This document shows positions 2,123 through 41,699 of a stretch of DNA of 64,000 nt, piece after piece (the stretch's first letter is position 1; each line of letters begins with the position of its first letter). The stretch is from positions 30,752,001-30,816,000 of the forward strand of contig OZ076413.1 of assembly GCA_964187785.1 (NCBI GenBank). The letters are read 5' to 3'. The notes under the pieces are model-generated. The model searched no databases. It saw only the letters and a program-made list of their open reading frames with translations, and was not told the origin of the DNA. The stretch is from Amphiscolops sp. MND2022. Its lineage: Eukaryota. The translations under genes were made by a program, and so were the position numbers.

Positions 2123-2153
2123 CTAAACGTAAACTACGAAATGAGATAATAAT

Positions 2154-4303: not shown

Positions 4304-4382
4304 TGTTGAAATTCTTCAGTCTGTTTTTGAATCAACCGTGTAATCGCTCCCTGTTAAAGAATCAGTTTAAGTGTTTAGTAGA

Positions 4383-4838: not shown

Positions 4839-4883
4839 AAAATAGGAAGTTAAAAGAGACTAACTTCAACCATTGCTGAAAGT

Positions 4884-6123: not shown

Positions 6124-6768
6124 ATGAGTAACAACAACGAGTCTGACTACTACGAGGAATCATCGACCGATGAGGAAACAGTTGCGTCTGCTGCTTCGTC
6201 GTCTGCTCCCTCGTCGTCTGCTCCCTCGTCGTCTGCTCCCTCGTCGTCTGTGGGCCCTTCGTCGGCCGCTGGGCCTTCTTTGTCGTTGGCTGGGCCTTCT
6301 TTGTCGGCGGCTGGGCCGTCCTCCTCTTCTGCGCCTGTTGCTGCTGTGGCCCCCAGGCCAGTCCTGCAGGCCTCCACAGTAGTGGCTCAAGGGGTTTTAG
6401 AGAACCCCGGAGAGCAGAGTTTTCTCAGCCTCTTTAACCGGAGGGACGTGGACCGGTTAGAGAATTGGGCCTCTTTGTCCCGTTCCATGCGGGGGTCTCC
6501 CGGGTTTGCCTTATCTGGGGCGCCCATCCCAAATGCCTTTGTGAGCTTCTTGAGGGCCAACCTGGGAGCCCGTTGGGAGGGAACCCTCCTGTCCCCTCTA
6601 GGGGAATTAGTGCTGTGTTAACTGAGGGCCTATATAGATGGGTTCTGCCAGTTGACCAGCTTCGAGAGGGGGCAGTGGGTGAGGCTGTACCAGTTATGGA
6701 CCAGAGAGGAGCGGGCTTCCCAGTTGAGGCGGCTAGCGGAGAAAGGCGGTTTCCTGGAGATTGAGTAG
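6124..6768 (+). CDS. Antisense accessory ORF (acidic N-terminus, Ser/Ala/Pro repeats, helical-looking C-terminus) with an in-frame TAA at 6619-6621
   Basis: ATG 6124 to TAA 6621 gives 165 aa. The same frame stays open for 48 more codons (LRAYIDGFCQLTSFERGQWVRLYQLWTREERASQLRRLAEKGGFLEIE) to TAG 6766-6768. 15-bp (SSSAP x3) and 21-bp tandem repeats keep the frame. Confidence 0.55.
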
Positions 6769-6930
6769 GCGCAAGTCGCCTCTCATCTCCAGGAAAATTC
6801 TCTACTATTTTTATACGCTTCTGTGCTTGTGGCTTTTCGTAAGTCATGTTCGGGATTGCACAAATAATATCGATAAACGGAAGTAGAATATATTAAAGGT
6901 AATACATCGCTAATAGGTTAAATGTGCCGG

Positions 6931-7317
6931 CTAGGAGCTAGGTGAGGAGATAGTCGAGCAGCAGAATAGGTCCTTTTGAGTATTGGGTGAGGAAGGTTGT
7001 AGGTCAGGAATTAGGGTAGGCATGTAGGATAAGAGTTCTTCTAGGATAGGGTCGTGATGGTTGACTGCATGGTAGGCTAGGTGCTGATATAGTTGAGCAA
7101 ACGTTTTGGATTCTGGGTGAACATGAAGATTTGATTTTCGGGGCGTAGGTTGTTTGTGGGGGCTCGGGTCTGGGTCGTTGGAGTAGAAGCAAATTCTAAT
7201 TAGTTTGTTTGTGTAGGTCCAGTAGATTTTTGTGATTGTAACGTGTAGAACGTTTAAGGATTGGAGTTCTCGTGGAACTTGCCATGATAAATTTAGGTAA
7301 ACTTTATGACAAGGCAT
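6931..7317 (-). CDS. Small accessory ORF (128 aa) immediately after pol
   Basis: ATG lies 8 nt downstream of the pol stop; shares a motif with the 73/131/114-aa ORFs. Confidence 0.65.
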   Translation of the reverse strand: MPCHKVYLNLSWQVPRELQSLNVLHVTITKIYWTYTNKLIRICFYSNDPDPSPHKQPTPRKSNLHVHPESKTFAQLYQHLAYHAVNHHDPILEELLSYMPTLIPDLQPSSPNTQKDLFCCSTISSPSS

Positions 7318-7325
7318 GATGTAGA

Positions 7326-10300: not shown

Positions 10301-12836
10301 TTGTATCCTTTTTTGTGAGTTCGTAAAAGGGTCGACTATCGACGTGAAGGTTCTTGATGTAGCAGCTGTAGAAACCTAAGGCTCCCAAGAAGCTTTTCAC
10401 TTCGGTTTTGGTTTTTGGTGATTTGAGATTATGTAGGTCTCTTACTCGTTTAGCTACGGGTTGTATTCCTTCTGCTGCAATCACATGTCCCAAAAACTTG
10501 ACTTTCCTCAAGAAGAAGAGTGTTTTGTCAGGTGCCGCTTTTAGTCCCGCTTTCCGTAGTAGGTTATGGTATTCTTGAATCACTGTGAACATTTCTTGTT
10601 TACTTTTCGCTTGCATCAACGTGTCGTCTATGTAGGTGATTGCTTGTTTCTTTTTAATGAGAGGTTCGAAGTGAATTGTCATCATTCGGCTAAAGAAGCT
10701 TGGTAACCCTTTAAGTCCGTAGAATCCTCTGGTGAAGGTGTATTGTTTCCCGCCTATGATGAAGCTTGTAAGTTTTTGTGTAGGCTCGTCTAATGGGACT
10801 TGGTGAAATGCACAGGAGAGATCACTTACTGAGAAGATGTTCCCGTTGATTAGTGTCATTATGGTTTGGATCGGTTCTAAGGGCCAGGAGTAGTTTGTTA
10901 GATCCGTCACTGAATTTAGGTATCTTGCGTCTATGATCAGTTTTACATAGTCGTGTTTTGGTTGTAGTATAATAGGATTTACGAATAAGGATCCCATTTC
11001 GTCGTCATCGCCCATCTCTCTGATAATATCGGCGTCTTTGAGTTGTGTGAGTAGCTTCTCTAACTTTTCTCTTAGGTGAAGTGGTACTTTGCTGGGTCTC
11101 TGTCTCTTCAGGATTGCTCCAGGTTCGAGTTTGATGTTAAATTTCTGTCTGGTTTTTCCTACGTCGAATTTGTGTTGGGAGTATACATCTCTCGCATCCA
11201 TTAGTTGGTCTATTAGGAGCACAAGTTCCTCGTCAGTAAGGTCTGAGTAGCGAAAGTCGAATTCTTTGATGTATTGCACTGCTTCTTTGTTCTGGTACTG
11301 AAGGTAATACTCGATCAGTCTTTCGTTGTCTTCTTTTTGCCTGAAGATTTTAAATTGCTCATCGCAGGGTGGTTGACAAGACTTTGCGTCACTCGTAAAG
11401 TCTGTCTCCAGCTCTCTATGTTTAAGGTGAAATTGCTCGGAAAATTGTTGTATCTCGTCTTCCAGCGCGTATTCGGGGTCTCCTCTCGTAGTCATAGCAT
11501 AGACGTCTAGTTCATTTCTTGTATAAATTCGGAGTTGTATTTCCGAGTAGGCAAAAACATCTTGAATAATTTGTGTCACATCTTGCCATTGGAAATCTTC
11601 TAGTTCTGACGCTTCTCGTAACATAGAAATGGTCTTGATACAATTCATTTTGGCGTGTGCTTTTAGAGTCTCTAGCGTTTGGACTAAGATTTGTGGGTCG
11701 ATTTTGTCTTTTGATTTAGCTTTTGTGATTAGGACGTATATGAATCGTTTTAGATTCATGTCCCAGTAAGGTATTGTATCCCCTTTGAGTGGTTTCTGTT
11801 TTGCGCAAGATTCTTTTAACAAGGGTATGTTCGTTAGGATTTCTTTCGAGAAGCCTTTGGCTGGCTTCAGATCTGCCGGGACAAAGATCATGATGGAGTC
11901 GGGTCTGCTGAGGATTGTAGTAGAATTTCCTCCTTCTATTCTGATGCAATCGTTCATATCTTGTGAAGGGATGGTGGAGTGCAACAGGAAACAGTCATTG
12001 TATTCTTCGTTTTCGTTTAGGATAGCGTAGGCGAGTTCCGTAGGGTTTCTAACTTGGTATTTTGGAATTTCTTGGTCTAATACGTCGAGCAGAGAGTATC
12101 CAATAGTTCCTTTTACTAGGGTGATTGTATGGTTTTTGTTATTTTCCATGACGATTGGCAAAGTCTTCTCAAATCTTGTACAAAGGACATTTATAAAATT
12201 TAGTCCTGTAGAGACTGCTTTTCTGTTGGGTAGGAACGTAGATCCGGGAGGAAAGGAGTTCTTGGGGTTTTCCGGTGCAAATTTGTAACATCTTGTCGTC
12301 TTTGGTTCGATATACATTGAGTGAGGAATTCGGACTGAGAGTATTTGTGATACGTAGGGGTAACATTTGTTGAGTTGTAGACTGCCATAGCAGAAAGTAT
12401 TTATAGGTCTTTTGAGTTCTATGCCAGGAAGATCAAAGTGTATTTTGTTAACTTGTTCTTGACAGAAGTTCATTCCAAGGAGGTTTTGGGTCTTCATCTC
12501 TGTTATCCAGACTGTCAGTGGGAAGTTATGTTGTCCATCGGAATCGTAGTAGAGTTTAAGGGTGATGTATCCCATCATAGGGATGATCTGCCCAGAGTAG
12601 TTCCGTGTTGTGTTGTTACTTCTGCTGAGTTCGAGGTCTTGTTGAAATTGACAGAGTTCTCTAAAGGTCCTGTAGTTAATGATTGAAGATGTTGCCCCAG
12701 TGTCTAGTAGAAATTCGATTTCTAAGCCACTATCTTTTTGTGAGTCTCCGGCAGCAAAATAATAAAGATTAAGACTAAATTTTAGTGGGGCAGTGCTGCT
12801 GTTACGGTTTTTCGGAGACCTTAATAGTTTAAAGGG
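7326..12836 (-). CDS. pol: Pol: aspartic protease, dUTPase-like spacer, TARG1-like macrodomain, RT, RNase H, integrase
   Basis: The frame is open upstream of the tracked ATG to the gag end and includes FLLDTGA (DTG at 12696-12704). RT YIDD; RNase H HVDSSNVG...DHKP; IN HHCC (H...GH...CVSC), D-D-E core (HIDHKGP, HDRGTAF, KVETQN) and LGPF. Confidence 0.96.
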   Translation of the reverse strand, partial: PFKLLRSPKNRNSSTAPLKFSLNLYYFAAGDSQKDSGLEIEFLLDTGATSSIINYRTFRELCQFQQDLELSRSNNTTRNYSGQIIPMMGYITLKLYYDSDGQHNFPLTVWITEMKTQNLLGMNFCQEQVNKIHFDLPGIELKRPINTFCYGSLQLNKCYPYVSQILSVRIPHSMYIEPKTTRCYKFAPENPKNSFPPGSTFLPNRKAVSTGLNFINVLCTRFEKTLPIVMENNKNHTITLVKGTIGYSLLDVLDQEIPKYQVRNPTELAYAILNENEEYNDCFLLHSTIPSQDMNDCIRIEGGNSTTILSRPDSIMIFVPADLKPAKGFSKEILTNIPLLKESCAKQKPLKGDTIPYWDMNLKRFIYVLITKAKSKDKIDPQILVQTLETLKAHAKMNCIKTISMLREASELEDFQWQDVTQIIQDVFAYSEIQLRIYTRNELDVYAMTTRGDPEYALEDEIQQFSEQFHLKHRELETDFTSDAKSCQPPCDEQFKIFRQKEDNERLIEYYLQYQNKEAVQYIKEFDFRYSDLTDEELVLLIDQLMDARDVYSQHKFDVGKTRQKFNIKLEPGAILKRQRPSKVPLHLREKLEKLLTQLKDADIIREMGDDDEMGSLFVNPIILQPKHDYVKLIIDARYLNSVTDLTNYSWPLEPIQTIMTLINGNIFSVSDLSCAFHQVPLDEPTQKLTSFIIGGKQYTFTRGFYGLKGLPSFFSRMMTIHFEPLIKKKQAITYIDDTLMQAKSKQEMFTVIQEYHNLLRKAGLKAAPDKTLFFLRKVKFLGHVIAAEGIQPVAKRVRDLHNLKSPKTKTEVKSFLGALGFYSCYIKNLHVDSRPFYELTKKDTNFCWNQEHEDLFQQIKKRISEDTVLAVPSTKYPFHIHVDSSNVGTGCILIQQFPEGKRIISFNSRVFAKEEQKMSTLHRELCGIVSALQTYEHYIIGSPFPIYLYCDHKPILYLWGRKGQVSPRFFRYQVIISKFPNLKIIWTPGSNLAFPDILSRNVSIEEHKKHQLSHKILPNDIHFFDEHGTQIHYKIKHEENEETSKNDFYPILYEKGDERKILHLQNDGNNFTVNNIYEEPNLPKIESAQSCLDAGRELGKFSELKIRSGTRDSTSDSSQNTYSSINSDADDEACTDNQSHEVNETNYELNTEDLTARNTGIPENAKAIEHLSLPTNSTEKHKTPARELVSQLDKISKEVDLDVTTILQEQINDPVLSVVRRWIQTGNRPTPKSPELQHSKGLMRYSQEFDRLTIEENGNLLCYNEPTDKTEEENLRICLPLSLFLACFRLGHYNDLGGHMGAEKTYLNAKRFYYWPGMHDWICALTQDCVSCQSNKSKQRRNNEVPLEDCETETQVFRTVHIDHKGPLNPPSRGNSHCLLIIDAFSRYLMAYPVRDTGAQSTINAMEKWIMHYGIPQSIIHDRGTAFVNTEFVNWTKELGITLRPRTAHSPWTNGKVETQNQHIARYWRNFLNDSGNNWAQLAAKFAFAHNTSVNYTTGKTPYEIVFCNKPQIPMSLKLGLYRNKNKNCRSQFCNGLPPHCHSENQVKNELLNGLLRPQLSQNLLERETAFKKIYSSTYEKCRKQTARSHAYRNRFKLGSHLNIGQKVLLENHRKDLSKSQKLQQLRLGPFTVTKRITNTTYQIKNDQNPENLRTVHRNHLIEYFPKEETLPPLIEEYTTPYRGDTDFYNNFVKGRIERLNVSEPQILGDLCILPVRNQQRQTTAQKRVRTPQSTDSGIISPENHRLGTPTTPDQPTTSRPPGSTTPIQTLTQQITPEPLTTTPATSTKSLTPLQELRRAVASHVERNPRYQRAQPNQPAPLSILRQKTRVGYKA
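11520..11948 (-). other. TARG1/OARD1 (Poa1p-like) macrodomain within Pol
   Basis: RFIYVLITKAKSKDKIDPQILVQTLETLKAHAKMNCIKTISMLREASELEDFQWQDVTQIIQDVFAYSEIQLRIYT aligns by eye, without gaps, to the TARG1 C-terminal half as recalled (RYIYYLITK...L..SLEAMKSH...LSMPRIGCGLDRLQW..V...IEEVF...I.I.VY). Confidence 0.8.
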
Positions 12837-14275
12837 CGAATATCGGCGACAGAGTTCACCGAGTAATCTGTTTCGAGAAACTGTACGGTGTTATGTCTTC
12901 CCATGTCGTTAGTTCTAGGGAACCTTTGTTCGTAGGTTTGAGTGGGGGTGTTTGGTCTTTCGTTTCTGTTTTGTGGTCTATTAAAGACTGAGTTATTCCT
13001 TGGTGGAAGAGGCTGTATGTTGCGGTTGAAGGAGTTAGGCTGGTCTCTGTTGAAGCTGAACGGAGATCTTGCTCTTTGGGGCCCAGGAGAAACACTTCTG
13101 GAATTGTTAGAATTGTTTAGAAAAGGTCTTCTTCCTTCTTGTGAAAATCTTTGGTTACCAGGACTGAATCTTGTATTCATAGGTCGGCGTTCTGGGTTGA
13201 AATTTCTTCTTTGTGGTCTATCATATTGGTTCCGGGCAGGGTTTGACTGCATGGCTCCAGCAAGTGCTAGTTGATGTGCCACAGCCATATGTTTTCTGAT
13301 TTCTGAATCGGGTAGTCTAGTTTGGAATCTAGAACCATGTCCAGGTCCAGTTCTTTTGTTGTAATCGTTGGTGAAAGTTATTCGTCTCTCTGGGTTGGAT
13401 TCATTTTGAACTTTCTTGATTTCTTCATCTCTCATCTTCTTTCTGCACCAGTTAGGCGTATGCCCATTTGTTCGGCAGTAGCTGCAAAACCTGGTGGCCA
13501 TTCTACGTCCTGTTGCGTTCGGATCAACAGTTTTCTCTATTGCATTAATAGTGTTGTTCGTCTGTTCTTTGATTTGTAGCTTGATTCCTTTGATGTCTTC
13601 TCGCAATTCTTGGATGAGTGGGTCTGCGTGTGATTCTCCACCGGTGAGAGAGGTAGTTACTGTGTAAGAAAGGTCTTTGTTTATTACAGCTTGAGAGAAC
13701 TGCTCCCAGGTTGCATTCGGATGATCCATTAAGTATTCGTGTGCCTTTTCCCTCAGTTTCGGGGGTCGAAGGCCTCTCAGTGAGTAGTCAATGCACCTCT
13801 GTCTTCTTTGTCTGTCTTGTGCTGCTCTTTCGGCGTCTCTATTGTTCTGTGCGACTCCGGCTAGATCATCTGGCCATCCTTTTCCGACTACTATTTTAAT
13901 TCTGTGTAGGAAGTTCTTTATTTCTTCTCCATCTCGTCTGATGACGTGTTCGGCTTCCATTCTGTGTCTAAATTTGTTTCTGCCATCTGCGAATCGCGTT
14001 ATGAACCTCTCTCTGATTTCTGCCCAAGTGTTAGCGTCTGTGATGCTGGTCTCGAACCACTCTGCTGCGGGTCCTCTTAATAGTGTAGCAAAATAGGATT
14101 TTCTTCTGAAGTTGTAGTCATCAAGTGCTGGTCCGTTGGCCGGGGTATCACCGTGAGAAAACCGGAACTTCTTTTCAATGAGCTGTATGAATTGTTCAGG
14201 ATCTTGATCTGGGTCTGTTCCTGTGAATTGGTCTCGGCCTAGGTCTGGATAAGCCAAGTAATTTTGCGCAGCCAT
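12821..14275 (-). CDS. gag: Gag (capsid-like region, CCHC zinc knuckle, Arg/Asn/Pro-rich tail)
   Basis: 484-aa ORF upstream of pol; CSYCRTNGHTPNWC = C-X2-C-X4-H-X4-C; LRGPAAEWF and LRGLRP resemble retrotransposon capsid motifs. Confidence 0.92.
   Translation of the reverse strand: MAAQNYLAYPDLGRDQFTGTDPDQDPEQFIQLIEKKFRFSHGDTPANGPALDDYNFRRKSYFATLLRGPAAEWFETSITDANTWAEIRERFITRFADGRNKFRHRMEAEHVIRRDGEEIKNFLHRIKIVVGKGWPDDLAGVAQNNRDAERAAQDRQRRQRCIDYSLRGLRPPKLREKAHEYLMDHPNATWEQFSQAVINKDLSYTVTTSLTGGESHADPLIQELREDIKGIKLQIKEQTNNTINAIEKTVDPNATGRRMATRFCSYCRTNGHTPNWCRKKMRDEEIKKVQNESNPERRITFTNDYNKRTGPGHGSRFQTRLPDSEIRKHMAVAHQLALAGAMQSNPARNQYDRPQRRNFNPERRPMNTRFSPGNQRFSQEGRRPFLNNSNNSRSVSPGPQRARSPFSFNRDQPNSFNRNIQPLPPRNNSVFNRPQNRNERPNTPTQTYEQRFPRTNDMGRHNTVQFLETDYSVNSVADIRPLNY
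12827..12836 (-). promoter_or_regulatory. -1 programmed ribosomal frameshift site (overlapping C CCU UUA and U UUA AAC)
   Basis: Minus strand CCCTTTAAAC is in the gag frame two codons before the gag TAA. The pol frame is -1 relative to gag and open through this site. Confidence 0.85.
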
Positions 14276-15290
14276 TGTGAGCTATTGAGGTTATAAAAGA
14301 TAGAAGATGAAGTAAGGAAAAATAAGCCAAAGACTCTGTGAGGTATGATACTCCTGGTTTTTGAGAGTAACTACAAAGAGCGGAAGTAAAAATTGTTTGT
14401 ACAATGATTCTAACAGTGATAATTATTAGGCAGGTCTGACAAAACATATACTCCGTAATTCGCTGCTAGTAAAAATGAAATTAGCGCATCTCAGCCCAGG
14501 ATAGGCACATTCCCAGTATTTATTACTGAAATTTCAAAATTTTTAGGGGATACTTACAAATCCCGCTTGTGTTACGATTACCGTAAAAAGGGTAGTTCGG
14601 AGTATACCAATCCTCCGAGTTAAGCTTAAAAGATTGGAGAGTACAGTCGGTCCAATAGGTCTTCAATTCGCTAGACTAGCCTTTCAATGGCTTTTGTAAA
14701 AGTAGTACTAGAACTAACCAACAGAGGGAGTCACTCTCGTCCTCAGGATTAAGTGCGCGGGGCCAAGATCACTATCATGCAAACACTCGGGTACTATCAC
14801 TAGAATACTAGGTTTCCCACTTGGAATGCTACACAGGTTCCGGGACACCCACTGGGCTCACGGCCTTCAACCAGTCTCCGAGGAGACCTAGGCGGGCTTT
14901 TACTTAATGTGTGTCCGTCTGGACTTGAGTGAACTTCCCAACTGTAAGTTTAAATTCCGTGTTAGAGGGCAGTTTCATTCTTGTTTAGGACCGAATGTAG
15001 TCTAGCATTTCCGTAAAAATAGATCAGCGCTAACCTTTTTGTGGATTGAGAGGACTAAGTTGGGTAGAGCACAGTCTCTTCCAACGGCTGTTAAGCTGGA
15101 GAGATTCTATTAGAGTATTTACTAGCAGTTCTGTAATTTATATAGACTAAAGAAGCCACATATTGGGGCAGTAGGAGAAAAAAGAAAATCAGAAGTAAGA
15201 TTAAGAGAAATAGGTAGTTAACCCTAACTTCTGAGAGTAGGGATTCGAACAGATTGCTCATTTACTTCTCTATAGTAAGAGAAAAAGGAT

Positions 15291-15308
15291 GCCTCACTGG
15301 TCGCACCA
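15291..15308 (-). promoter_or_regulatory. Primer binding site
   Basis: TGGTGCGACCAGTGAGGC starts 3 nt after the 5' LTR end, complementary to a tRNA 3' CCA end. The tRNA identity was not determined. Confidence 0.85.
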
Positions 15309-15311
15309 GTT

Positions 15312-16810
15312 TGTCGCACGCATGGATAAATTTCAGTTCTGCTATTTTACAGTTTCCTCTTTTAGAGGGGAATTCCAAATTTGTTATCCGTATTAGTCAG
15401 CCCAGCTGTTACAACATTTGGCAAAATGCTTTTCCAACAACTGTTGTTTTATTGAAGTAGAACAAGTAGAAAAGTCTCAATAACTTAATTTCTTTTTTGT
15501 AATACCGAAAAGAAAGTGCCTTGCGTGTACGTGCGAACAAAGGAACTTGCGTGAGTAAGTGCAAGGCAGGGAATGTAAATGAGCTCTCTGAACTAAAAAA
15601 AAAAACATATGTTAGCAAACTTGTTGAATTACATAAAAGAGTTGAACTTCAGACATATCAGTTTTTATTCAACTGTTTACAAGTATTCAGTCAAACTCAC
15701 CAAATTTATTTGCCAGCAACCGAAGTAATATCTTAGCTATTTCAATTTAGAGCATAAATTGATGAAGAAATTTAGCATCGAAGGAAATTCATAGTAATTT
15801 CCTTTAGTTCGAAGAAAGTTTTTTTACGAAAAATCCAGTTTTGGTGTTGTAATAACTTAGACAACACTATTTAATTTTATAGTCTCTACTCCTTTGTTTT
15901 AGGAATAGCATTAAGACTTTAGGAATAGCATCTTTTTTTTTTTTTTGAATATGGGAATGGTAAAGACAAATAAGTTAACAGGGGAAAACCGCAGAATTAA
16001 ATCAGCAGAATTATTCTAAGATAGAATTTTAACAACCGCAGAATTAAATCAGCGGAATTATTATAAGATAGAATCCGCAGAATTGAATCAGCGGAATTAT
16101 TCTAAGATAGAGTTTAGTTAGAAGGAGGGAGAGTAAAAAATCTCCTCTAAAAGAAAAAATCTAAGATATTTTCGACTCACCCAACTGGAGACCAAGTTGA
16201 ATTGAAGAGAATTTTCTAAGATAGAAAATTCTGTTGGGGAATAGAGAAAAGGAAAAGATAAGTTTTTGCTTGAGGAAAGGGAGAAAAGGAGGAAAGTTTG
16301 ACTTTATAAGTCTGAGATAAGACAAGTGCAATGTAAGCAAAGAGAAAGTGGAGAATAAGAGTCGAGGGGGAGAAGGGGGAGAGTAAGTGTAAGAGAAGTA
16401 GAGGAATTGATAAGTTGAGAGAGAGAGAGAGAGCTGTAAGTTGAGCTCAGCCGTCCGGCGGGAAAGAATGAATCTCCAGCCTGTGCGCGCGGTATAAAAA
16501 CAGTTCAGCACAGCTGTTGAAGTGCCTGGCCGGCATGTGTTGCATGCTACCAATGGTAGCTCAGCTTTAAAATTCAAATATCCGCGGTAAGAAATAGAAA
16601 TTTTCACTAGTGCAATTCCTTTCCCGTAGTATTCCATTACTTATTACTCCACTTCGAGGCCGCCGCGTTATGGCCGCCGCCATATTTACTTCAACTTTCC
16701 ACTCTCCACACAACGTTAGTTCAAGTTTTATGTTTCTCTTTGCACGTATTATTTTTTATAATAGAAAGCGCCTTTTGGTGATTCGTTAGAGCGTTAGTCA
16801 TAGCGCGACA
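15312..16810 (-). repeat. 5' LTR, 1499 bp, termini TGTCGC...GCGACA
   Basis: 6-bp terminal inverted repeat with TG...CA ends; PBS adjacent; right part is duplicated at 1-506. Confidence 0.92.
15989..16113. repeat. Three 39-bp imperfect direct repeats inside the LTR
   Basis: ccgcagaattaaatcagc(a/g)gaattatt(c/a)taagatagaat at 15989, 16036 and 16075. Confidence 0.9.
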
Positions 16811-18518: not shown

Positions 18519-19478
18519 TCCTAATGCAAATAAATTAACATCTATTAGTTAGTTGAATGTAATTAACACGGCCGTTAATCAGAAGCACTTTGTCTCATGG
18601 CGTGAAGTAGAAGTACGTCTCGTAAGGAACATGCAACAAAAAAGCAAAAAACTGAATCAGTCAATTGTGTAATAAATTCGGGTGATACCGGCAATGACTT
18701 GTGTGAGAGGATGCAGAATTCTGCACCTAAGTCGCTATAAACAGAGATTGGGACGCTTCGGATTGAAACAGAGCATCATAGAATCACAGAAAACTTCAAG
18801 GTCGCCTAAACTGTACGATAAAGAGTTATACAAAAACGGGAATTCCGAGTATAAGTAAACAGTTAACTGTCCTGTACCAGTATATATCCATACAGATCAA
18901 AATGGTACTTCAACGAGGAACGGATTCGCATGAATAACGAATAAAATGAAGAAACACTTTTTCGTAGTCAATTTTTGAACTGAGATTTTCAACTGAACGG
19001 ATTTATAACATTTAGTTTTTCTAACTCACACTGTCAGTGAAATCGATTTTTAGTTAGGTATGCAATAAAACTTCAGTTTCGATTTCGGTGTAGTTTATAG
19101 TGAATGAAAGATTTTTCAGAATTGTGGTGCGTTCATCATAAAATTCATCGAAAAGTAGAATCAACACATTCAACTGAACAGGAGGTACAGTATCTATATA
19201 TCTATGATACTATTGTCTAAACAGAACAATGAAACCCAGTTTCCTTTGAACTTGGAACAACACTATCTAAAAATTTTTTCAATAACCGGATAAAAAACTA
19301 ATATTAGAGATGAATAAATAAAGTGGAAATCTGATGTGGCGTTGTCTACAATGAACGGTACATTGTACAATTAGCGAACGAGTGACGTAAGAATAACTCA
19401 ACACATTGTTTTAGACTCAACCAGTTTCCTATGTACTCCTGGTTGAAATTTTTAAAAGGAAACTTTGATGCTGGTCGT

Positions 19479-20745
19479 TTTTAGGGCTGACCTGTTTGTG
19501 ATTACTTCTTCGAATAACAAAGTCTTTACGCCCGCCCTGATTGTTTCCAGGAACCACAATGACAACGTCCAGAGCACTCGTAAATTCTTGGATGACCTTG
19601 TCGGTCCAATTCAGCGTCAAAAGCACTTCTAAGTATTTTGGTTTTTAGAATAAAACAAATGCTTCCGATGGATTCTTCGTTCAAATGGACTTTGTCTTCT
19701 CTCAAATGAGTGACTTTGTAGACCCTCTTTTCTACTCCTCGAAACGACCAGTCTTCCTTTCGATTAGATAGCAGTTTGTTTACTGCACTGGTGCGTTCTC
19801 TTTGATTGTGACGAGGAGGAATTCCCAGCACAAACACTTTATCAGCTTTGCCTTTTAAAACGTTAGCAAGGTCACTAATTTTGTCCGCAACCTCTTCCGA
19901 ACTAACTTTAGAGGGTAATTTACCTTGGAAAAGATCGTTTCCTCCAACGAAAAGTACTATAATATTGAAGCGACCCACGCGTGGAATGAAATTATAAACG
20001 TCGTGAACTTTCGCACCAGGCAAGGATAAAATATTGAAGTTCGCGAAATCTAAATATTTCGCTTGTGAATCAGCAATTAAAAGATTTCTTTGGACGGATT
20101 CTTTGAATATATGATAACGCATTTGGAACTCTCAAATTTGGATTCTGTGATACCTCATGGACTCGGCGAATCCGTTTAAGAGCACCAAAATACTATCATA
20201 CTTTCTGTTAATCAAAATTACCAGTTTTTTGTCTCTATTTTCTTTGTAATATTTTGGAACTGGAAGCTTATTTTCCGTCTTTTGGCACTCAATTTTAGCC
20301 AGGAATAGGAAACATCATTTGATAATTTCAAATAATCTTTTTTCCGTATCTTTTTACCAGTATTCCGCAATAATTACAATCAAAATAAAATCCAATAATG
20401 GTAAATTTCGAAAATAATAGCACGCTCGGTCATAAGAAACCTGCTTCTGAACAATCAATCTATAACTTGGTTACTTTTCTCATACAGTTGGAACAACTTG
20501 TCCAATTTAAGAATTCTCGCTTCTCGTTTTCGAAGTTATTGATTGTTGTTCGTGTGAAACTTTACATCCGTTTAACATCTCATTAATATTCATTACAACG
20601 TCAAATTTATACAATTTTGATTAGATATATATTTGGCTCAAACATTCTGATTAAACATCGGAATTCCTTCGATTGTTGAATACTTTAAATGCTTGACCGA
20701 AAACCATAAGTATTTGATTTGGATTATGATTGTATGGCGCCAACA
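19479..20745 (-). repeat. BEL 3' LTR (1267 bp)
   Basis: Matches 27402-28668; one substitution seen (20276 c vs 28199 t). Starts TGTTGG and ends CCCTAAAA on the minus strand. Confidence 0.95.
19526..20122 (-). CDS. SGNH/GDSL hydrolase-like protein encoded in the 3' LTR
   Basis: Block I LIADS, block II PGA, block III VGGND, block V DKVH (DxxH); 198 aa, uninterrupted. Confidence 0.85.
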   Translation of the reverse strand: MRYHIFKESVQRNLLIADSQAKYLDFANFNILSLPGAKVHDVYNFIPRVGRFNIIVLFVGGNDLFQGKLPSKVSSEEVADKISDLANVLKGKADKVFVLGIPPRHNQRERTSAVNKLLSNRKEDWSFRGVEKRVYKVTHLREDKVHLNEESIGSICFILKTKILRSAFDAELDRQGHPRIYECSGRCHCGSWKQSGRA

Positions 20746-23700
20746 TCGCCGGCCCTGTTTTCCATAGGAAAACACTCTTCTTTGAAAACTGGCGCCAACT
20801 TCACCACAGGTCGTTTACACTGTCCAGTAGCTGTTTTGATTAGAGCAGATCTCACAAAGCCATCTCTTCCAGGATAGACTTCTATAATTCGAGCCATTTG
20901 GTAGTGAGATCTTTTCATGTTATCTTCCACTAACCACACAAGATCACCAGCGGATATATTTTTCTCTTGTTTCGAATACCATTTACTTCTTGAATGCCAT
21001 TGGGGTAAATATTCATTTGTCCAACGTTTCCATATCATATCGGCATAGGCTTGCGATGATTTGAATATCTTCCTGTGGTTAGCATACAATTCGGCATTAG
21101 GAATAAAAGGGACCGCGACGTTTGATCGTCCCAGTAGAAAATGATTTGGGGTCAGCGCTTCCAGGTCTGATGGATCATCACTCACCGCTGTTAATGGCCT
21201 TGCATTAAGTGTTTGCTCGACAAGACACATTGTAGTAATGAGAGTTTCATCGGTTAAGGATCGGGAACCCAGAATAGCAAACATAGCTTTCTTGCAGCTC
21301 CCTACCAAGCGTTCCCAGACACCTCCAAAATGAGGGGCACTGGGAGGGTTGAATTTCCAAATAATTCCTTTCGATGCCAAACTTTCTCCCATTTGACTTT
21401 TGTTCCACGAGTCAATATATTCCTGAAGCTCCGTAGCGGAGCCGACAAAATTTGAGCCATTATCGCTCACTATAGTCTTGGGTTTGCCACGCCTCGATAT
21501 AAAGCGCACAATTGCTGCCATGCAAGAGTCTGCATCGAGACTTCTGACTACTTCAATGTGAACCGCACGCGTTGTTAGACAGGTGAAGAGACAACACCAT
21601 CGCTTCATGGTTCTTCGCAGCATTTTCACTTCAAAGGGACCAAAATAGTCTATGCCAGTGTTAGTAAAAGGATGGGCTTGAAAGTCTAATCTTTCAGGAG
21701 GTAAATCCGCCATGAAAGGTTGTTTTACTGCAGACCGGAATTTTCTGCAGTCCACACAACTACCCTTAATTTTTCTCAATGCGTTACGCAAACCAAGAAC
21801 ACAAAATTCTTGCTGGATCACATTCCGCACATATTCCACTCCCTCGTGCAAATTGTCAATATGCGCTTGCAATAACAATAATTTCACCACTGGATGAGTC
21901 GAGCACAATAAAATAGGATGTCGTTGATCAAAACTGATGTTTTTTGCATACTTCAGTCTTCCTTGAGCCCTGATTAAACCAAAATTGTCAAGAAAAGGCG
22001 TGAATTTCTTTAAGTTGCCATCAATTTTACCCTCTGCACCTTTTTGTAAGTTTGCAAAAGTTTCCGGGAAAAGCTCCCTTTGAACAAGTTTGATGAGAAC
22101 TTTTCTCGAATTTTTTAATTCATCGACCGATAAATAACTGGTATTCGTCTTACTCCTCAATCTTAAGCAAAACGCAATAACACGTTGAATTTTAGAGAAA
22201 CTGCTGAATCGATCCCAAGTTATCAAATCTCTTTTCTGGGTAACGAATATGGATTCCATTTCGCCCATACTCGATGTGACTTCGTCCAAGCCCAGTGAAG
22301 TAACAGGCCATTCTTCCATTGGTAGTTTCAACCATGCCGGCCCTGTTAACCACTCTGACTTCGTGAGATTCTCAAGGGAAATACCTCGAGTGCCAATATC
22401 GGCGGGATTCAGTTCCCCTCTAACATGTCGCCACTCGTCTATTGTTGTACTTTCAAGTATTTCTGAGACTCGATTGGCAACAAAAACGACTTGCTTCTGA
22501 TGGGCACTTTTCAGCCACTGTAAGACAGTCTCGGAGTCTGTCCAGTGATAAATACTTTCAAACTTGAGGTCATGTTCTGAACAAATGAGCTTTCGTAGTC
22601 GAACTCCATACATTGCCGCTTGAAGTTCCAACCTTGGAACCGACAATTGCTTCATTGGGGCAATGCGGCTTTTTCCTAGAATGAACGATACTTCGGTCCC
22701 AGTCTTTTGTTGATAACGAATGTATGCAACAATAGCCATTGCTTCCAAACTAGCATCACTAAAAATGTGCAGCTCCATGTGCTCCGGTAGACTCATAAAG
22801 TAATGTCTGTTTAGTTTTACTTGTCGCATTGAAGTAAGCTCCGTAGCCCAAGCTAAAAAGCAAGCCCTTTCTTCATTGGAAACTGACTCATCCCATCTCT
22901 GTCCGTATTGAATCCATATGCTTTTCAATAAAATTCTCATTCTCATTGTAAATGGCGCTAATAGTCCCAATGGGTCAAATACCGAGGAAACAAATGATAA
23001 AATAGTCCGTTGAGTCACATGTTCAGGCATTTGTCTATCAGAACCTCTACATGCCCGCAGATGTCTTTTGAGATAATCCACTCCAAGCCGAGGATTGAGG
23101 ACGTTTCGAGTTCAGAGTCCAGTGAAACAATGTCAGATACTGCGCAGTCTTCTTCCGGAATTGCTTCCAGAACCTCGTGCTTGTTACTGGCCCACTTTTT
23201 CAGAGCAAACCCACTCTTAGACATTACTGACACAATTTGTCGGTAATGCTCTTGGGCGTCTTGAATATTTGAAACACTCTTGACCAAGTCGTCCATATAA
23301 AAATTCCGTTCAATCATTTCCGAAGCCTTGGGGAATTCATCTTTGAAATCCTTCCCAGACTGTTGCAAGGCGTAGTTGGCACAAGTAGGCGAATCCTTGG
23401 AGCCAAAAACATGACGATTGTATTCATACACGTGCAAAGTCTCTTTATCGCTATTGCGCCATAAAAAACGTAGCACTCTGCAGTCCTCCACTGGTACTCC
23501 AACTTGTAGGAACATCGATTCGATGTCAGCGTTAATGGCCACCTCATGTTCACGGAATCGAAAAATTATTCCGATGAGATTTCGAAGTAAATCCGGTCCT
23601 GTCAGCAACTTGTCATTCAACGAGGTGCCTTTAAATTTAGACGCAGCATTACACACGCGTCTAACCTTACCCGGTTTGTGTGGATGCTTCACAGGATGAT

Positions 23701-26700
23701 GTGGTAAGTACCATTGAAGATTGTTTCCGGTATGTTGTAATTCATGTTTGTCGATAACTCTGATAAATCCATTCTCCAAATCCTTTTGAATGGTTTTCTG
23801 ATATGCATCCTTCAAATCTACATCCTTGTCCAATCGTTTTTCTAGTGAATAGAACTGTTGAAGAGCCGAACTATAATTATTTGGCAGATCGGGAGAATCG
23901 TCAGCCCAAAGCAATCCCACTTCGTATCTTTCGCCATTGTGTCTAGTTGACCGTTTCAGAATGTCGAAAGCTCTTTCATCTTGTTTAGATCTTCCACTGA
24001 CGTTGCAAAGGGAGGCGTATGTTTCCATATCCCACCATCTTTTGATTTGACTTGTCAATATTTCATTGTCAGTGTCATTGGCTAGGTTACAAGACACAAC
24101 CAAATGATTGGTCTCCGACTTGGGCAATGGGCCACTCAAGGTCCAACCGAGCTCTGTTTTAACTGCCCAAGGTTCATTTCGACCGCCTGTCTTGTATTCT
24201 AAAGGTCGAATTAAAGGGTAAACATCTTGTCCCAAAATTATTTTAACTTCTTTCATGGCCATGATTTCGTCTGGTAGATCCGTCAAGTGTTCGTATTGTA
24301 TCTTCAATTTGTGAAAATTGTACTCTCTATCACCAACATTCAGTTTAGGATGTGTACAAAATGTGATTTCATGGCCCTTTTTATCCAAAAGAAATGGCGC
24401 AATTTCTGCAGTTACCTTTTCTGTGGACATTTCTGACATTCCATGGATACCAGCAATTGTCATTGTCGTAGCTTCACCAGACAGTTTGAGCTGAGACTTC
24501 AATTTTTCATCAATAAACGAGACGGTTGATCCTGTGTCCAACAGAGCTGTCGTACGGACTTCAAGATTCGAATTGCGAACTGTTATTGGAACAAGTTGCA
24601 GGACTCCACTGGATCCCGTAGCCAAAACTGCTGATGAACTAGCTTTGTTTTCTATTGCAGTATTAGCAGACTCTTTATTTTCTATAGGTTCGACATGTAA
24701 AAGTCTGTTGTGTTTTTTAATACAGCCATTGAATCCACACTTCCTTTCACTCTTGCAGTCTTTAATCAGGTGTGTATTTAGGCAACAAAAGCAAAGTTTG
24801 AGTTTTTTTACTGTTTCGTATCTGTCAGTGGGACTTTGCTTTTTGAACTTATCACAACCCCAAATTTTATGCTCGCCATCGTTCAACGGACAAGTCTTCG
24901 AATCCGATTTTGAGCTCTTCACTTGACCTTGTTTCTCCTTATTTGTGAAAGTTGTTGTTAGCACTGTACCTGAACTCCTTGCTTTCTCTCCCTGGGATGC
25001 ACCCTTCTTATCAGTATTTGAGCGGTACTGAACTAAAAGTTCATCATGTACATACGCCACTTCATTGAGCCACTCCGAGAATTTGCTGAGATTAGCTGTC
25101 AGATAACATCTTCCCTTCGCGTGAAACAGCCATTTTGTTTTGAGTTCAGGCGGCAGCTTGCGAACGGCAGCACTTAAAACGGATTCGGAACAAAGATCGC
25201 CTGTAAACCCGTACTGGTTTAAAACGCTAACACAAGTGGAAATGAGTTGAGAGTATTTAATAATTGCTGTCCAGTCATGTGATTTAATAAAGGGAAATTG
25301 ATATATTTGTTTCATTTGAGCATTAACTAACGACTGAGGTCTTCCAAAGTTTCGTTCAAGAGTTTGCCAAGCCGTATGGTACAAAGCTCCTGAATAGCCA
25401 AATCCAGCTATTGCTGCTTTAGCTTTGTCTTTCACCAGTGTCTTCAGGTGACTCATTTTTGTGTTATCATCAACCGGCGCATTGTGTATGACGGCATTGA
25501 AAAGACTAGACCATTCTGGCCATTCCAAAGGGTCGCCGGTGAATTCTTTCAGTTTGAGTTTGGGTAGACTTGAAACTGGCTGCAGCCATTGTGTCTCTGG
25601 CGTTACAGTCACAGTTGGGTGCGGCAGTGGTTGAAGTTGATAGTTTGAGGGTTGGGTATATTCTAACTTCGGGTTGATCGCATCTTTTTTGTTCTGGAAA
25701 TTGTTAGATTTGGTCTCCCTTTTGTTGGTCTTGGACTGACTCAAGCTCCTCTCACGTTGCATTTGAGAATCCAACGTTTTCTCTGGAGGACCGACCCGTC
25801 GGCCTCTTCGAGAACCTCTTACTTGGAAGAACGGGTTCTCCTCCTTAACTGAAGTAGGACGAGTTTGGTCAATGCTAAGTTGCGAAACTTTGCAAGATAT
25901 CTCGGACGTTCGATCAATAACCTGCTGGTCCAGCCATTTGCTGAAATGATCTTCCCTTTCGTTCTTCCATGTCAACGGTGCAGATTCGCTATCTGTCGAT
26001 TTGATGGAACTAGCGGTCGATTGAGCGTCTGCAATGTCGATTCTAGCTTGCAACTTTGTTTTTCGTAACATTTGCTTCTTCCTGAGAGATTCAAGTTCAT
26101 TCCGTTCTTGCATTTCTGCCAGTTCTTGTTCTCTCATCTTTTTCTTCACTGCTATTTCTCGTTCCTTTTCCTCCAGTTCTAAGCGGGACTCTGCCTCTAG
26201 AATGGTAGCTTGAATAGTTAATCGTTGTTTTTCACTCAAACGCGAAGCGTTAGAACGTTTATCCGACCTATGGATTGTATGTGATTTGGCGGATTCTGTT
26301 TTTGGCCCATCCCTGGGCGACAATATACCACCATGCTGCCGGTCGCCGATGTTGGCCGAATGGGGAGCGTCGCCAACAACATTCCAGTTCGAGTTACCTC
26401 TACTATTTGACAAATCATCGAACAAAGTTGAGTTGTTGGCGTCTTGGAGAAGTTCCAAGCCACGATCAAGTTTTTCCAATGGGTTCCTTTTCTTGTCATC
26501 GGGAGCTCTGGCTGCAACAACTGTTGAGTCTTTCAGCGCCGATTCGTCGTGGGTTTTGGACAATTTCTCTGCTTTAGGTTGATCAGCCTCAGCTTCCTCA
26601 TCCTTTTGTTCTTGCAAGTCGGGATTTTCTACATAAGCAATCCACTCCACTGTGCTTTTCTGCAGAATCAATTCAATTTCCTTCAATTGCTTCTCGCTTT

Positions 26701-27367
26701 GAGCTAGTGTCGTTGCTACACTCTCAGGTTTGATTAGTGACCGCTGTGAATCGAAAACCAGGTCTAATGCCGATTTTATTTCATGGAGTTTGGGTACGGC
26801 GGAACTTACTCGGGTTGATCGAGCTGATTCTTTAATTAGGTCATCAATTGCTTTCTTCTGTTTTTCGAACTCGCTCTTATGTTTCCACCACTGATCGGAA
26901 AGACGGCAATACTTTGAATAGTCGTTACGACTCTTCAGAGCGACCAGCACTTTGTGGAGTGCATGCACTAGCGGGTGGTTTTGTGCCCAGTTGTTTATCA
27001 TCTCTTTAATTTCCTGTTCTAAATCTGTTTTCACTTTTGTACGCTCCGCGACGTACTTTTCCTTCAACATTGGCAGGCCAAAACTAAACTCTTTGTCGAA
27101 AGCTTCCTTAGCGAGAATGTACTCATAATAGAGTTTGCCAAGGTCAGATGTTTTGGAAAACGTAGTCCATTCTTTTCCTTGGAGACGTTGAAATTCCTCA
27201 TTGACAGCTCTTATCGCTTCCAAATGTTTTGTGAACCTTTCTTCATGGTCATTCCATGCAGTCACAGCGGATGAGTTCTTCAGTGCTTCTGTGAATGGCA
27301 TTCGTTGAAGAGTGCCTCCTTTGTATACCGACATTACCTTGTGGTCAATAGTACCTCCGGATGCCAT
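20724..27367 (-). CDS. BEL Gag-Pol polyprotein (~2200 aa) split by one frameshift near 23061
   Basis: LPKLKLKEFTGDPLEW gag motif, Cys/His knuckles (CFCCLNTHLIKDC, CGFNGCIKKHNRLLH), protease LLDTGS, RT YMDD, RNase H FSDAS, integrase GIDYFGP/SDNGSNF/WERLV. ORFs 23015-27367 and 20724-23081 join as LGLEWIISKD-x-LRACRG. Confidence 0.93.
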
Positions 27368-27380
27368 TGCTTGCGACAGT

Positions 27381-27398
27381 TCCCGGGTCGCGGCACCA
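27381..27398 (-). promoter_or_regulatory. BEL primer binding site, tRNA-His-like
   Basis: TGGTGCCGCGACCCGGGA, 3 nt after the 5' LTR; resembles the complement of the tRNA-His 3' end (TGGTGCCGTGAC...). Confidence 0.75.
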
Positions 27399-27401
27399 AA
27401 A

Positions 27402-28668
27402 TTTTAGGGCTGACCTGTTTGTGATTACTTCTTCGAATAACAAAGTCTTTACGCCCGCCCTGATTGTTTCCAGGAACCACAATGACAACGTCCAGAGCAC
27501 TCGTAAATTCTTGGATGACCTTGTCGGTCCAATTCAGCGTCAAAAGCACTTCTAAGTATTTTGGTTTTTAGAATAAAACAAATGCTTCCGATGGATTCTT
27601 CGTTCAAATGGACTTTGTCTTCTCTCAAATGAGTGACTTTGTAGACCCTCTTTTCTACTCCTCGAAACGACCAGTCTTCCTTTCGATTAGATAGCAGTTT
27701 GTTTACTGCACTGGTGCGTTCTCTTTGATTGTGACGAGGAGGAATTCCCAGCACAAACACTTTATCAGCTTTGCCTTTTAAAACGTTAGCAAGGTCACTA
27801 ATTTTGTCCGCAACCTCTTCCGAACTAACTTTAGAGGGTAATTTACCTTGGAAAAGATCGTTTCCTCCAACGAAAAGTACTATAATATTGAAGCGACCCA
27901 CGCGTGGAATGAAATTATAAACGTCGTGAACTTTCGCACCAGGCAAGGATAAAATATTGAAGTTCGCGAAATCTAAATATTTCGCTTGTGAATCAGCAAT
28001 TAAAAGATTTCTTTGGACGGATTCTTTGAATATATGATAACGCATTTGGAACTCTCAAATTTGGATTCTGTGATACCTCATGGACTCGGCGAATCCGTTT
28101 AAGAGCACCAAAATACTATCATACTTTCTGTTAATCAAAATTACCAGTTTTTTGTCTCTATTTTCTTTGTAATATTTTGGAACTGGAAGCTTATTTTCTG
28201 TCTTTTGGCACTCAATTTTAGCCAGGAATAGGAAACATCATTTGATAATTTCAAATAATCTTTTTTCCGTATCTTTTTACCAGTATTCCGCAATAATTAC
28301 AATCAAAATAAAATCCAATAATGGTAAATTTCGAAAATAATAGCACGCTCGGTCATAAGAAACCTGCTTCTGAACAATCAATCTATAACTTGGTTACTTT
28401 TCTCATACAGTTGGAACAACTTGTCCAATTTAAGAATTCTCGCTTCTCGTTTTCGAAGTTATTGATTGTTGTTCGTGTGAAACTTTACATCCGTTTAACA
28501 TCTCATTAATATTCATTACAACGTCAAATTTATACAATTTTGATTAGATATATATTTGGCTCAAACATTCTGATTAAACATCGGAATTCCTTCGATTGTT
28601 GAATACTTTAAATGCTTGACCGAAAACCATAAGTATTTGATTTGGATTATGATTGTATGGCGCCAACA
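27402..28668 (-). repeat. BEL 5' LTR (1267 bp)
   Basis: Direct repeat of 19479-20745. Confidence 0.95.
27449..28045 (-). CDS. SGNH/GDSL hydrolase-like protein encoded in the 5' LTR (identical protein to 19526-20122)
   Basis: Same 198-aa translation with S/G/N/H blocks. Confidence 0.85.
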   Translation of the reverse strand: MRYHIFKESVQRNLLIADSQAKYLDFANFNILSLPGAKVHDVYNFIPRVGRFNIIVLFVGGNDLFQGKLPSKVSSEEVADKISDLANVLKGKADKVFVLGIPPRHNQRERTSAVNKLLSNRKEDWSFRGVEKRVYKVTHLREDKVHLNEESIGSICFILKTKILRSAFDAELDRQGHPRIYECSGRCHCGSWKQSGRA

Positions 28669-30163
28669 GTCGTAAAATTTTAATTGAAAAACTGTTCAGA
28701 TGAATTTGTTTCATGTTTGTGTTTCAGTTGTCTGTGCGGGAAGTAACGGAGCGTCAGTCTTTTATTTCAATGCTTTTTGTCTTTTTTCAACAGTTTTTCA
28801 GAACTTTGAGATCAGTCTACAAAATGCGACCACATTTAAACAAAATTAACCTTCGAGAAAGAATGAAAGCTCTTTTTGACAACATTTTTCGACTGAAAAA
28901 AGCATCACCAAAGTCTAAAAAATCCACAATTATTATGTTTAGGAAGTCATTAGCTAGATAGTATGTTTTGGGAACGTTTTGAAAGTGAAAAAAAAACTTC
29001 AGGAAGTATTAACCGGAGCCAATTTTTCTTGTTGTTTTTCTATTGGTTTTTTGTTTACATTCAAATTTTTCTAGTTCAGACTACAGTCAATTTCCCGAGA
29101 ATTCATAATTTGACATTGAATTTGTCGGAAGTCTTGCCAGATTGCAATAACATGTCATCTCTAATGCATATCAGTTATTTGACCGCATTTAAATTGGATT
29201 TCTTCCAGACATCATAGCTCCGACTTGACCTATGCGTGTGATCAACTGGTAGCAAATATGGCGCAAATCTGAGGCACCCGGCGCAGCCAAAATTAAATGG
29301 AGTTGGATGCATATTTGGGAATGTATTTTGTTACTGTTGACATAAATGGGCGGAAAGCTGAATGAAATTCTACTCAAATCACTGGTAGAAATGTATTGTA
29401 TAAACAAAAACACGATGAATTATATAGCGCTTTCCCGGGTGCACGTGGAATAAGGCAAAATTTTTGTTGGAAAAAATTACTTACAATAGGTAATTTTTCC
29501 ACGAGATCTTTCATGGCTACCCTTAGCTTTATAAGCGTATTGAAATTTGCATAAATTTATTAAAATCTCAGGTTGTTTACCAGCTTTGTTTGTTTTAATT
29601 CAAAGCTTCCCATTCCCGGAAGTTGGCGCTGCACCTGAATTTCTCCTGAATGCCCGCCTGAATTTTGACAACGCTTTAGTGCGGCTTTTTAAATGAACTA
29701 TAGAAAACGAAAAAGGTTCTTGGAGAAGAAAAATGTTTCGTACTCGACAATTTCGTTCCAGTCGTAAGCAATACTTCGGAGATCACAATTTTCTTTAACA
29801 GATGCAATTTGAAGAAAAAGCTATTTTGTTCAGCATTTTCAGTCTTGAAATCATCTGTTTTTTTTTGTACCATTTACAGTTTTTGTTCATTCAAGCTTTT
29901 TATCGGTTAAATTTTGAGTTAGTTATACGCTAGAGGCCTAATTTGAATTACAAATTATTTAACATTTTGAATAATACTAATCGTTCTAGAAATCGTTGAT
30001 TTTTGGTTTTGCTTAAAAAACGTAAAAGAAATGCTAAGAAGACGAAAGAAGACAATTTTTGTGCTAGGATAAAAGTGAAATGGTTACTAAATGTTATTTA
30101 AAAATTGCAAAGATAATTTTGCCGGATATGGAATTTCATCTGCTGCATTTATCTAACGTCAGC

Positions 30164-41500: not shown

Positions 41501-41699
41501 CGAGTCAGCTAGCACCATCATTTAATTCATTGCTCGAACAACTTGAAGTTTGCTAACATATCAGGTTGGTTTGTTTCTTCTCGATTTTAAGCTATTATAA
41601 AATAAAAGTATAAGTTTTGTAGCTCAAGAAATTTGACTAAGTTCTTTTCCTCAACACCCCCACTCAGATTGTTCCGGATGTCGTAGGGAGAATCTGCAT

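Follow-up and report, generated by a model that had tools for sequence, protein, structure and literature searches.

A predicted SGNH esterase gene within the long terminal repeats of a BEL/Pao retrotransposon from Amphiscolops sp. MND2022

The BEL/Pao element and its repeats

The window analysed here is a 64,000-nucleotide (nt) stretch of DNA from Amphiscolops sp. MND2022 (GenBank assembly GCA_964187785.1, contig OZ076413.1, positions 30,752,001 to 30,816,000 of the forward strand; positions below are those within the window). Its minus strand carries, at 19479-28668, a BEL/Pao (Belpaoviridae) long terminal repeat (LTR) retrotransposon of 9,190 nt that lacks env, and each LTR contains an open reading frame (ORF) for a predicted esterase of the SGNH type. 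In the 5' LTR this ORF lies ahead of gag, and it has been cleared of AUGs in all frames as far as the gag start. The coordinates of the features are collected in Table 1.

The element resembles other BEL/Pao elements in its DUF1759-containing gag (E 2.3e-17), its Peptidase_A17 (E 2.8e-43) and DUF5641 (E 3.3e-25) profile matches, its 5-bp target duplication and the protease-reverse transcriptase (RT)-RNase H-integrase order of its pol domains. It differs from them in the esterase gene in its LTRs and in its TG...AA termini. No env ORF was found between pol and the 3' LTR. The sole mismatch between the two LTRs (20276/28199) falls outside the esterase ORF, and this near-identity, together with the ACGAC duplication, indicates that the insertion is recent. 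The pol frame of the window copy is interrupted between RT and RNase H; because the region around the break reads differently in related copies from three of four sequencing runs, the break is probably private to the window copy or an assembly error.

Related copies were found in contigs from four runs on three samples: two RNA runs of one sample (X4 and X5) and two DNA runs. These contigs are approximately 92-96% identical to the element and cover it; one DNA contig extends from the gag start across the primer-binding site and reaches the esterase ORF, and the contigs repeatedly show joints where pol meets the 3' LTR. A second insertion, with a 5-bp duplication of its own, is implied by loose ends in X4 and X5.

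The primer-binding site is shaped like the 3' end of a tRNA, perhaps tRNA-His, and the 22 nt directly after the LTR, covering this site, are identical in a second BEL locus (L001, described below). LTR elements typically, if not by definition, end in TG...CA. The TG...AA termini, with the ...AA end at 27402-27406 and 19479-19483 and at about 1533-1537 in L001, are common to both window LTRs, the inferred L001 LTR end and the X4/X5 copy. A clear polypurine tract was not seen before the 3' LTR (20746-20785; 155-169 in L001), where a short purine-rich run lies within pol codons and is similar in both BEL families.

A sequence-only reading of the window had described a 198-amino-acid (aa) ORF with all four SGNH blocks and the catalytic triad, wholly inside a 1267-bp LTR and ending 47 nt before the LTR end, in an env-less element with a TATAAA at 28529-28534. 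Each of these particulars is borne out: the same ORF is present in both LTRs, its motifs and predicted fold agree, and the coordinates are confirmed. The span given for the element, 19526..28045, is correct as the outer limits of the two esterase ORFs and not as the extent of the element, which is set by the LTRs and the ACGAC duplication.

Table 1. Features of the BEL/Pao element in the window
Feature	Position	Strand	Remarks
Target-site duplication ACGAC (5 bp), upstream copy	28669..28673	-	
5' LTR	27402..28668	-	1267 nt; termini TG...AA
TATAAA	28529..28534	-	only [A/T]ATAAA hexamer of the LTR; LTR position 135
Structured leader with eight short upstream ORFs	28040..28510	-	z -3.84 against shuffles
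Second candidate intron	27973..28367	-	X5 joint with a matching X4 loose end; GC at the donor in the window copy
GT-AG intron, 308 nt	27973..28280	-	RNA contig of a related copy (X4); cuts out esterase start and Ser19
SGNH esterase ORF, 198 aa, in 5' LTR	27449..28045	-	probable working copy ('ORF0')
ATG-free stretch (any frame), 675 nt	27368..28042	-	esterase start to gag start
Primer-binding site	27381..27398	-	TGG-led; shaped like a tRNA 3' end
gag-protease-RT ORF, 1450 aa	23015..27367	-	DUF1759, aspartyl protease, RVT_1; frame breaks at ORF end
Remaining pol, other frame	20724..23030	-	Peptidase_A17, integrase, DUF5641
3' LTR	19479..20745	-	1267 nt; single mismatch against 5' LTR
Identical SGNH ORF, 198 aa, in 3' LTR	19526..20122	-	
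Target-site duplication ACGAC (5 bp), downstream copy	19474..19478	-	

The SGNH protein and its relatives

The catalytic motifs of the ORF product are ADS(19), PG(36)A, GGN(62)D and D(143)KVH(146), giving S19, G36, N62, D143 and H146; block I reads ADS in the window copy and GDS in L001. The profile search proposed with the sequence-only reading did return the Pfam GDSL family, as a weak match from a divergent family (E 0.0013; 19.7 bits against a curated cut-off of 32.9). An AlphaFold model built from a 27-sequence alignment has a mean predicted local distance difference test (pLDDT) score of 90.1; Foldseek matches it to platelet-activating factor (PAF) acetylhydrolase (E 2e-7), and it superimposes on a sialate O-acetylesterase over 157 residues (Z 16.5, root-mean-square deviation 2.2). 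According to this model the product is an SGNH hydrolase with a three-layer alpha/beta fold, and by its residues the enzyme looks catalytically intact. The top structural matches include sialate O-acetylesterases, PAF-acetylhydrolase and carbohydrate acetylesterases, all of which act on short acyl groups; the top Z scores lie within about 1 of each other at identities of 14-24%, and the matches name no substrate.

Other searches with the protein were less informative. Sequence searches of the PDB gave weak matches only (E 0.11-0.44), a viral fold library gave generic GDSL matches only, and the clusters of the ESM Atlas were GDSL-like, scoring 0.91-0.92 with fewer than 170 shared features, its unnamed clusters yielding nothing useful. 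The esterase of ZfL2-1 is absent among the structural matches listed, and the two may still be kin. By hydropathy the protein has no signal or transmembrane stretch.

Homologue searches returned 56 clusters, 222 representatives at E up to 0.001 and 85 by profile, the sets of 56 and 85 coming from ENA or Logan. Of 301 proteins gathered, 176 partial sequences were dropped and 125 near-full-length ones used. The triad is kept in 118 of the 125 and all five catalytic residues in 112; among 32 representatives below 70% identity, 24 keep all five and every one is basic (isoelectric point >8.5). Eight of the nine esterase clusters that were looked up have 11-40 members, and among the 15 members listed, 10 are full length in the cluster of the window element and 15 are of at least 194 aa in the L001-type cluster. 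By these counts the ORF is not disrupted in most family members; such disruption was one of the outcomes that the sequence-only reading had held would refute it. The esterase was not found in the viral contigs searched, and the genome contigs searched gave a single weak bacterial match (L003, 31% over 49 aa).

Residues 178-189 (about 27479-27514 in the window) form a conserved His...Cys-x3-Cys-x-Cys tail, to which the matches with known SGNH structures do not extend and which is a possible metal site or acylation cluster. The three cysteines are kept in 114-115 of the 125 homologues, and the tail is not evident in a distant subfamily (P0305/P0311). An 8-codon ORF (28055-28081, minus strand), 36 nt upstream of the esterase start and in the same frame, shares its first four residues with the esterase and is perhaps an old duplication.

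Only two informative loci were found beyond the window. L001 is a BEL element of a second family, in which the end of pol (DUF5641, E 3.4e-8), the LTR start, the esterase, the LTR end, the same primer site and the gag start follow one another; it contains a single LTR, the bounds of which are inferred. Its esterase is 55% identical to that of the window and occupies the equivalent LTR position, while the LTRs of the two families give no meaningful alignment outside the esterase ORF. L002 is a long interspersed nuclear element (LINE) with endonuclease and RT, in which a 42-46% identical esterase forms a separate ORF ahead of ORF1. The L002 copy has a stop near its end, and its near-twin P0174 is intact. 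This stand-alone, AUG-free ORF0 before ORF1 (222-836) gives the LINE an unusual three-ORF layout. In all three loci the esterase stands alone, with no fused coiled coil, and when longer, fused forms were sought, a single weak match came up (E 2.9e-5).

Between the two BEL families the esterase ORF has a nonsynonymous divergence (dN) of 0.42 and a synonymous divergence (dS) of 2.16, for a dN/dS of about 0.20, which compares with 0.24 for a short part of pol and 0.19 for a short part of gag from the same families. By these comparisons the esterase gene is conserved and is evidently under purifying selection. A quick tree of 35 rows, with an unresolved backbone from which no direction of transfer is claimed, separates the LINE protein from a group made up of the two BEL esterases (SH-aLRT support 90, not starred). 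The sequences suggest that one esterase cassette occurs both in BEL/Pao LTRs and as the first ORF of a LINE, and so is common to different retroelement classes. The proposal that the gene is an accessory SGNH gene of a BEL/Pao element, and not a LINE fragment confined to one copy, is upheld by the second BEL family, which has the esterase in its LTR at a dN/dS of about 0.2.

The AUG-free stretch, the leader and splicing

From the esterase start to the start of the next gene, no ATG occurs in 675 nt of the window, 718 nt of L001 or 868 nt of L002. Dinucleotide shuffles of these stretches contain 8.0, 6.4 and 5.8 ATGs on average, and counts as low were reached in 1, 2 and 6 of 5000 shuffles, respectively; the antisense strands contain 8, 12 and 16. 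At least eight ATGs are present in all 238 overlapping internal segments, and each of 188 tiles of the window has at least one. Among triplets, ATG ranks first in depletion in both BEL loci and fourth in the LINE. The esterase gene is thus cleared of AUGs up to the next start, that of gag in the BEL elements and of ORF1 in the LINE.

The homologous proteins tell the same story. Internal methionine makes up 22 of 24,486 residues (0.09%) in the 125 homologues and 12 of 6,170 in the 32 representatives, compared with 45 of 2,218 in gag-pol; selecting full-length ORFs could favour Met-poor proteins, and the three DNA counts given above are independent of gene calling. A distant set of 13 proteins has 6 in 2,508, and residues 2-24, upstream of the splice acceptor described below, have 4 in 2,873. 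The start codons differ in context (context rule in PMC5902531). The esterase start is weak, with C at both -3 and +4 in the window and both favourable bases missing in all three loci; gag starts have both favourable bases (G at -3 and +4 in the window), and the LINE ORF1 start has one. A weak start followed by a stronger one is therefore the order at three of three loci.

The leader upstream of the ORF is more folded than its shuffles in both BEL families (z -3.84 in the window and -2.96 in L001) and is a candidate packaging or shunting signal. The stretch from the esterase to gag is not more folded than shuffles (z -0.41), and 13 internal control segments range from -1.41 to 1.7. The TATAAA of the window LTR may serve either as TATA box or as poly(A) signal. 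Neither AATAAA nor ATTAAA occurs in this LTR, and the L001 LTR has an AATAAA at position 129; the hexamer is about 490-570 nt upstream of the esterase ORF in both families.

RNA contigs of related copies contain joints that correspond to the two introns of Table 1, the X5 joint skipping 397 nt to about the same acceptor as the X4 joint. Each joint takes out most of the hairpins along with the esterase start and Ser19; in the spliced forms of the window copy, no in-frame esterase start was found. They were seen in the two RNA runs only and are absent from the two DNA runs. These joints show sense transcription and processing of related LTRs, not expression of the esterase. Self-priming by a splice junction was considered and rejected: the longest junction complement to the primer-binding site is 5-6 nt, a scan of 4,354 possible junctions gave three chance-level matches of 10-11 nt, and the site resembles a tRNA and is common to L001. 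The sequence-only reading had mentioned neither the lack of AUGs nor the introns, nor the LINE homologue that stands alone.

Expression, function and precedents

The explanation that we favour, with some reserve as a whole, is that an LTR-borne SGNH gene heads the genomic RNA, is translated ahead of gag by leaky scanning, is switched off by splicing and yields a membrane-linked esterase. Loss of AUGs as far as gag makes sense only at the 5' end of an RNA, which places the ORF in R or U5, in keeping with the position of the lone [A/T]ATAAA hexamer in both families; the gene would sit in this transcribed part of the LTR and so head the genomic RNA, with transcription starting from the 5' LTR. 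Of the two copies, the 5' one probably does the work, as an 'ORF0' in R/U5, and the 3' one is probably a by-product of LTR duplication. It is likely that part of the ribosomes initiate at the weak AUG of the esterase and that the others continue scanning, across the AUG-free ORF, until they meet the strong AUG of gag-pol. Splicing may then remove the esterase start and the structured leader to give an mRNA for gag-pol only, the unspliced RNA serving as genome and esterase template, a step for which the case is evenly balanced; packaging signals would lie within the spliced-out hairpins. The function is put forward more tentatively: the small, basic, cytosolic protein may bind anionic membranes, hydrolyse short acyl esters and aid particle traffic without an envelope, a role drawn by analogy from the ZfL2-1 esterase, which is active and binds liposomes (PMC3905857). 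The membrane or deacetylase function named in the sequence-only reading is likewise still a proposal.

Several points weigh against this explanation. Were transcription to begin around LTR position 165, the AUG of the esterase would be preceded by eight short ORFs in this family, which would lower esterase output; the L001 LTR has four AUGs before the esterase, up to position 194. Since both joints remove the esterase start, the RNA that was observed cannot be shown to make the protein; moreover, the joints come from one sample, with contigs that include host flanks, a sign of read-through transcripts or DNA, and may represent read-through or cryptic splicing. The DNA context comes from three loci only, the homologue counts cover called ORFs and thus over-represent intact copies, and a dS of 2.16 is near saturation, which makes the dN/dS rough. 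The fold matches suit lipid and carbohydrate esterases equally well.

Splicing alone might account for the layout, with gag-pol made from a spliced RNA that needs an AUG-free last leader exon and the esterase made from a separate RNA (a splice form or a short LTR RNA), or with gag reached by shunting or internal entry. The RNA contigs, in which two donors are joined to one acceptor inside the ORF, fit this scheme, as do the eight upstream AUGs within the structured leader and the few short ORFs that are left before gag after splicing. Met is depleted upstream of the acceptor as well, however, and the LINE homologue is AUG-free over its whole stretch with no AG at the codons matching the BEL acceptor, so splicing cannot be the whole reason for the loss of AUGs; the weak-then-stronger order of starts at all three loci also argues against the scheme, which we consider quite unlikely. 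Placing the gene in U3, to be expressed through a subgenomic or spliced RNA that originates from the 3' LTR, would make it comparable to mouse mammary tumour virus (MMTV) sag and lentiviral nef, which like bel are U3 genes. The ORF does occur in both LTRs, and one jointed RNA contig (X5 record 28) extends to LTR position 9. Against this stand the clearance of AUGs up to gag, which only a 5' position would explain, the place of the only TATA- or poly(A)-like hexamer far upstream of the ORF in both families, the 47 nt after the ORF, which leave hardly any room for R and U5, and the LINE homologue, likewise 5' of the main ORFs. A U3 gene is accordingly very improbable.

The enzyme could instead be a counter-defence or regulatory deacylase, expressed as in our favoured explanation and acting on O-acetylated glycans, small acyl esters or host proteins. 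Its best structural matches do act on short acyl groups, and its presence in unrelated elements would fit a host-directed function, but the tied Z scores and low identities single out no substrate, a cytosolic protein lacking a signal peptide would not meet surface glycans, and one retrotransposon esterase that has been assayed, that of ZfL2-1, binds liposomes (PMC3905857); a deacylase is unlikely, if worth keeping in view. That the gene is a passenger, a 5' LINE fragment which an LTR once picked up and which brings the element no benefit, is largely refuted and hardly credible. A 42-46% identical relative does head a LINE, and rotifer ORFs of this kind are reported to show no significant departure from neutrality within a rotifer genome (PMC5408684). 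The gene is, however, present at a dN/dS of about 0.2 in two BEL families with otherwise unalignable LTRs, its BEL proteins group apart from the LINE protein, and the triad is kept in nearly all homologues. The explanation by leaky scanning from a 5' ORF0 remains the one that we prefer.

Accessory SGNH genes have precedents. SGNH/GDSL genes are known in LINE and Penelope-like elements (PMC3905857), in rotifer Vesta LTR elements and Terminons (PMC5408684, PMC6431247) and in Ngaro elements (PMC9210276). The GDSL ORF3 of Vesta, like the window gene, belongs to an LTR element that lacks env, encodes an SGNH protein on its own with the catalytic residues intact and is found in a second retroelement class too (PMC5408684). 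By its description it is nonetheless distinct: ORF3 takes the place of env and is common to Athena/Terminon elements, whereas the window gene belongs to a BEL/Pao element, is AUG-free, precedes gag and is common to a LINE. Nor does the window ORF have the env position of a Vesta-type third ORF, as it lies inside the LTR and the pol stop codon falls within the 3' LTR. The ZfL2-1 ORF1 protein (ORF1p) and the esterases of CR1, L2, RTEX and Penelope elements share with it the SGNH fold, a conserved active site, a position 5' of the polymerase gene and a basic surface, but that class is a domain of a coiled-coil ORF1p (PMC3905857), and the enzyme described here is a free protein of 195-215 aa with a C-terminal Cys motif, separate from ORF1 in L002. 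The Hydro-SGNH ORF of Ngaro, too, is a supplementary retroelement gene of the SGNH type whose function is unproven; it follows the recombinase ORF and belongs to tyrosine-recombinase retrotransposons, a different order of elements (PMC9210276).

The translation layout has its closest parallels elsewhere. Leaky scanning through AUG-free ORFs is known from rice tungro bacilliform virus (RTBV), with its ORFs I and II, and from badnaviruses, which have a structured leader with short ORFs, AUG-cleared accessory ORFs with suboptimal starts and then a polyprotein (PMC5902531). These are plant pararetroviruses without LTRs in which scanning was shown experimentally; in the window scanning is inferred, and the accessory gene encodes an enzyme and lies inside an LTR. 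Accessory ORFs ahead of gag are also known in MDG1 elements: sORF1 and sORF2 of the Drosophila MDG1 group are translated upstream of gag in env-less elements that pass between cells (bioRxiv 10.1101/2025.03.14.642691). Our literature searches listed no paper that describes an esterase in a BEL/Pao element or within an LTR, although subscription journals, Repbase or supplements could hold one; the available portions of PMC3286476, PMC8220671, PMC7264820 and PMC3894237 contain nothing on BEL esterases or LTR-internal genes. The sequence-only reading had called the gene unfamiliar as an LTR-encoded gene of BEL elements, which holds for the BEL host and the position in the LTR and not for SGNH genes in LTR and Ngaro elements at large. 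New here are the BEL host class and the position inside the LTR; the translation signature is notable as well, as is the presence of a related esterase in a LINE.

Other retroelements lie in the same window. A Gypsy-type element occupies about 1-16700 on the minus strand, with gag at 12821-14275 and pol at 7326-12578. It carries an F-type env-like gene at 2154-3986 (Monjiviricetes_fusion, E 2.2e-20), the N-terminal part of which is likely encoded in another frame at 3899-4303, and a MATH/TRAF ORF at 621-1523 near its 3' repeat. Its pol contains, ahead of RT, a TARG1/OARD1-like macrodomain (11499-11936, minus strand; E 3.6e-10 against human O-acetyl-ADP-ribose deacetylase 1), possibly a counter to ADP-ribose-based defence. 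A Copia element with frames broken between gag, pol and RNase H lies at about 41092-46550 (minus strand).

Ever since the LINE esterases were described, it has been asked why retroelements of several classes retain SGNH enzymes. The enzyme reported here is small, free-standing and well folded, is kept by both BEL/Pao elements and a LINE, and is easier to assay than a domain of ORF1p. As a long shot, it may be a portable AUG-free cassette of the 5' leaders of unrelated retroelements (BEL/Pao LTRs and LINEs) within one animal group, leaky-scanned, spliced off and standing in for an envelope in crossing membranes or passing between cells, with solo LTRs seeding the host with expressible esterase genes. 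A methionine-free ORF ahead of gag or ORF1 is a signature for hidden accessory genes in LTRs, which are usually annotated as non-coding. If leaky scanning holds true, animal retrotransposons would have a long coding R/U5 and use a translation strategy for which plant pararetroviruses provide the best documentation.

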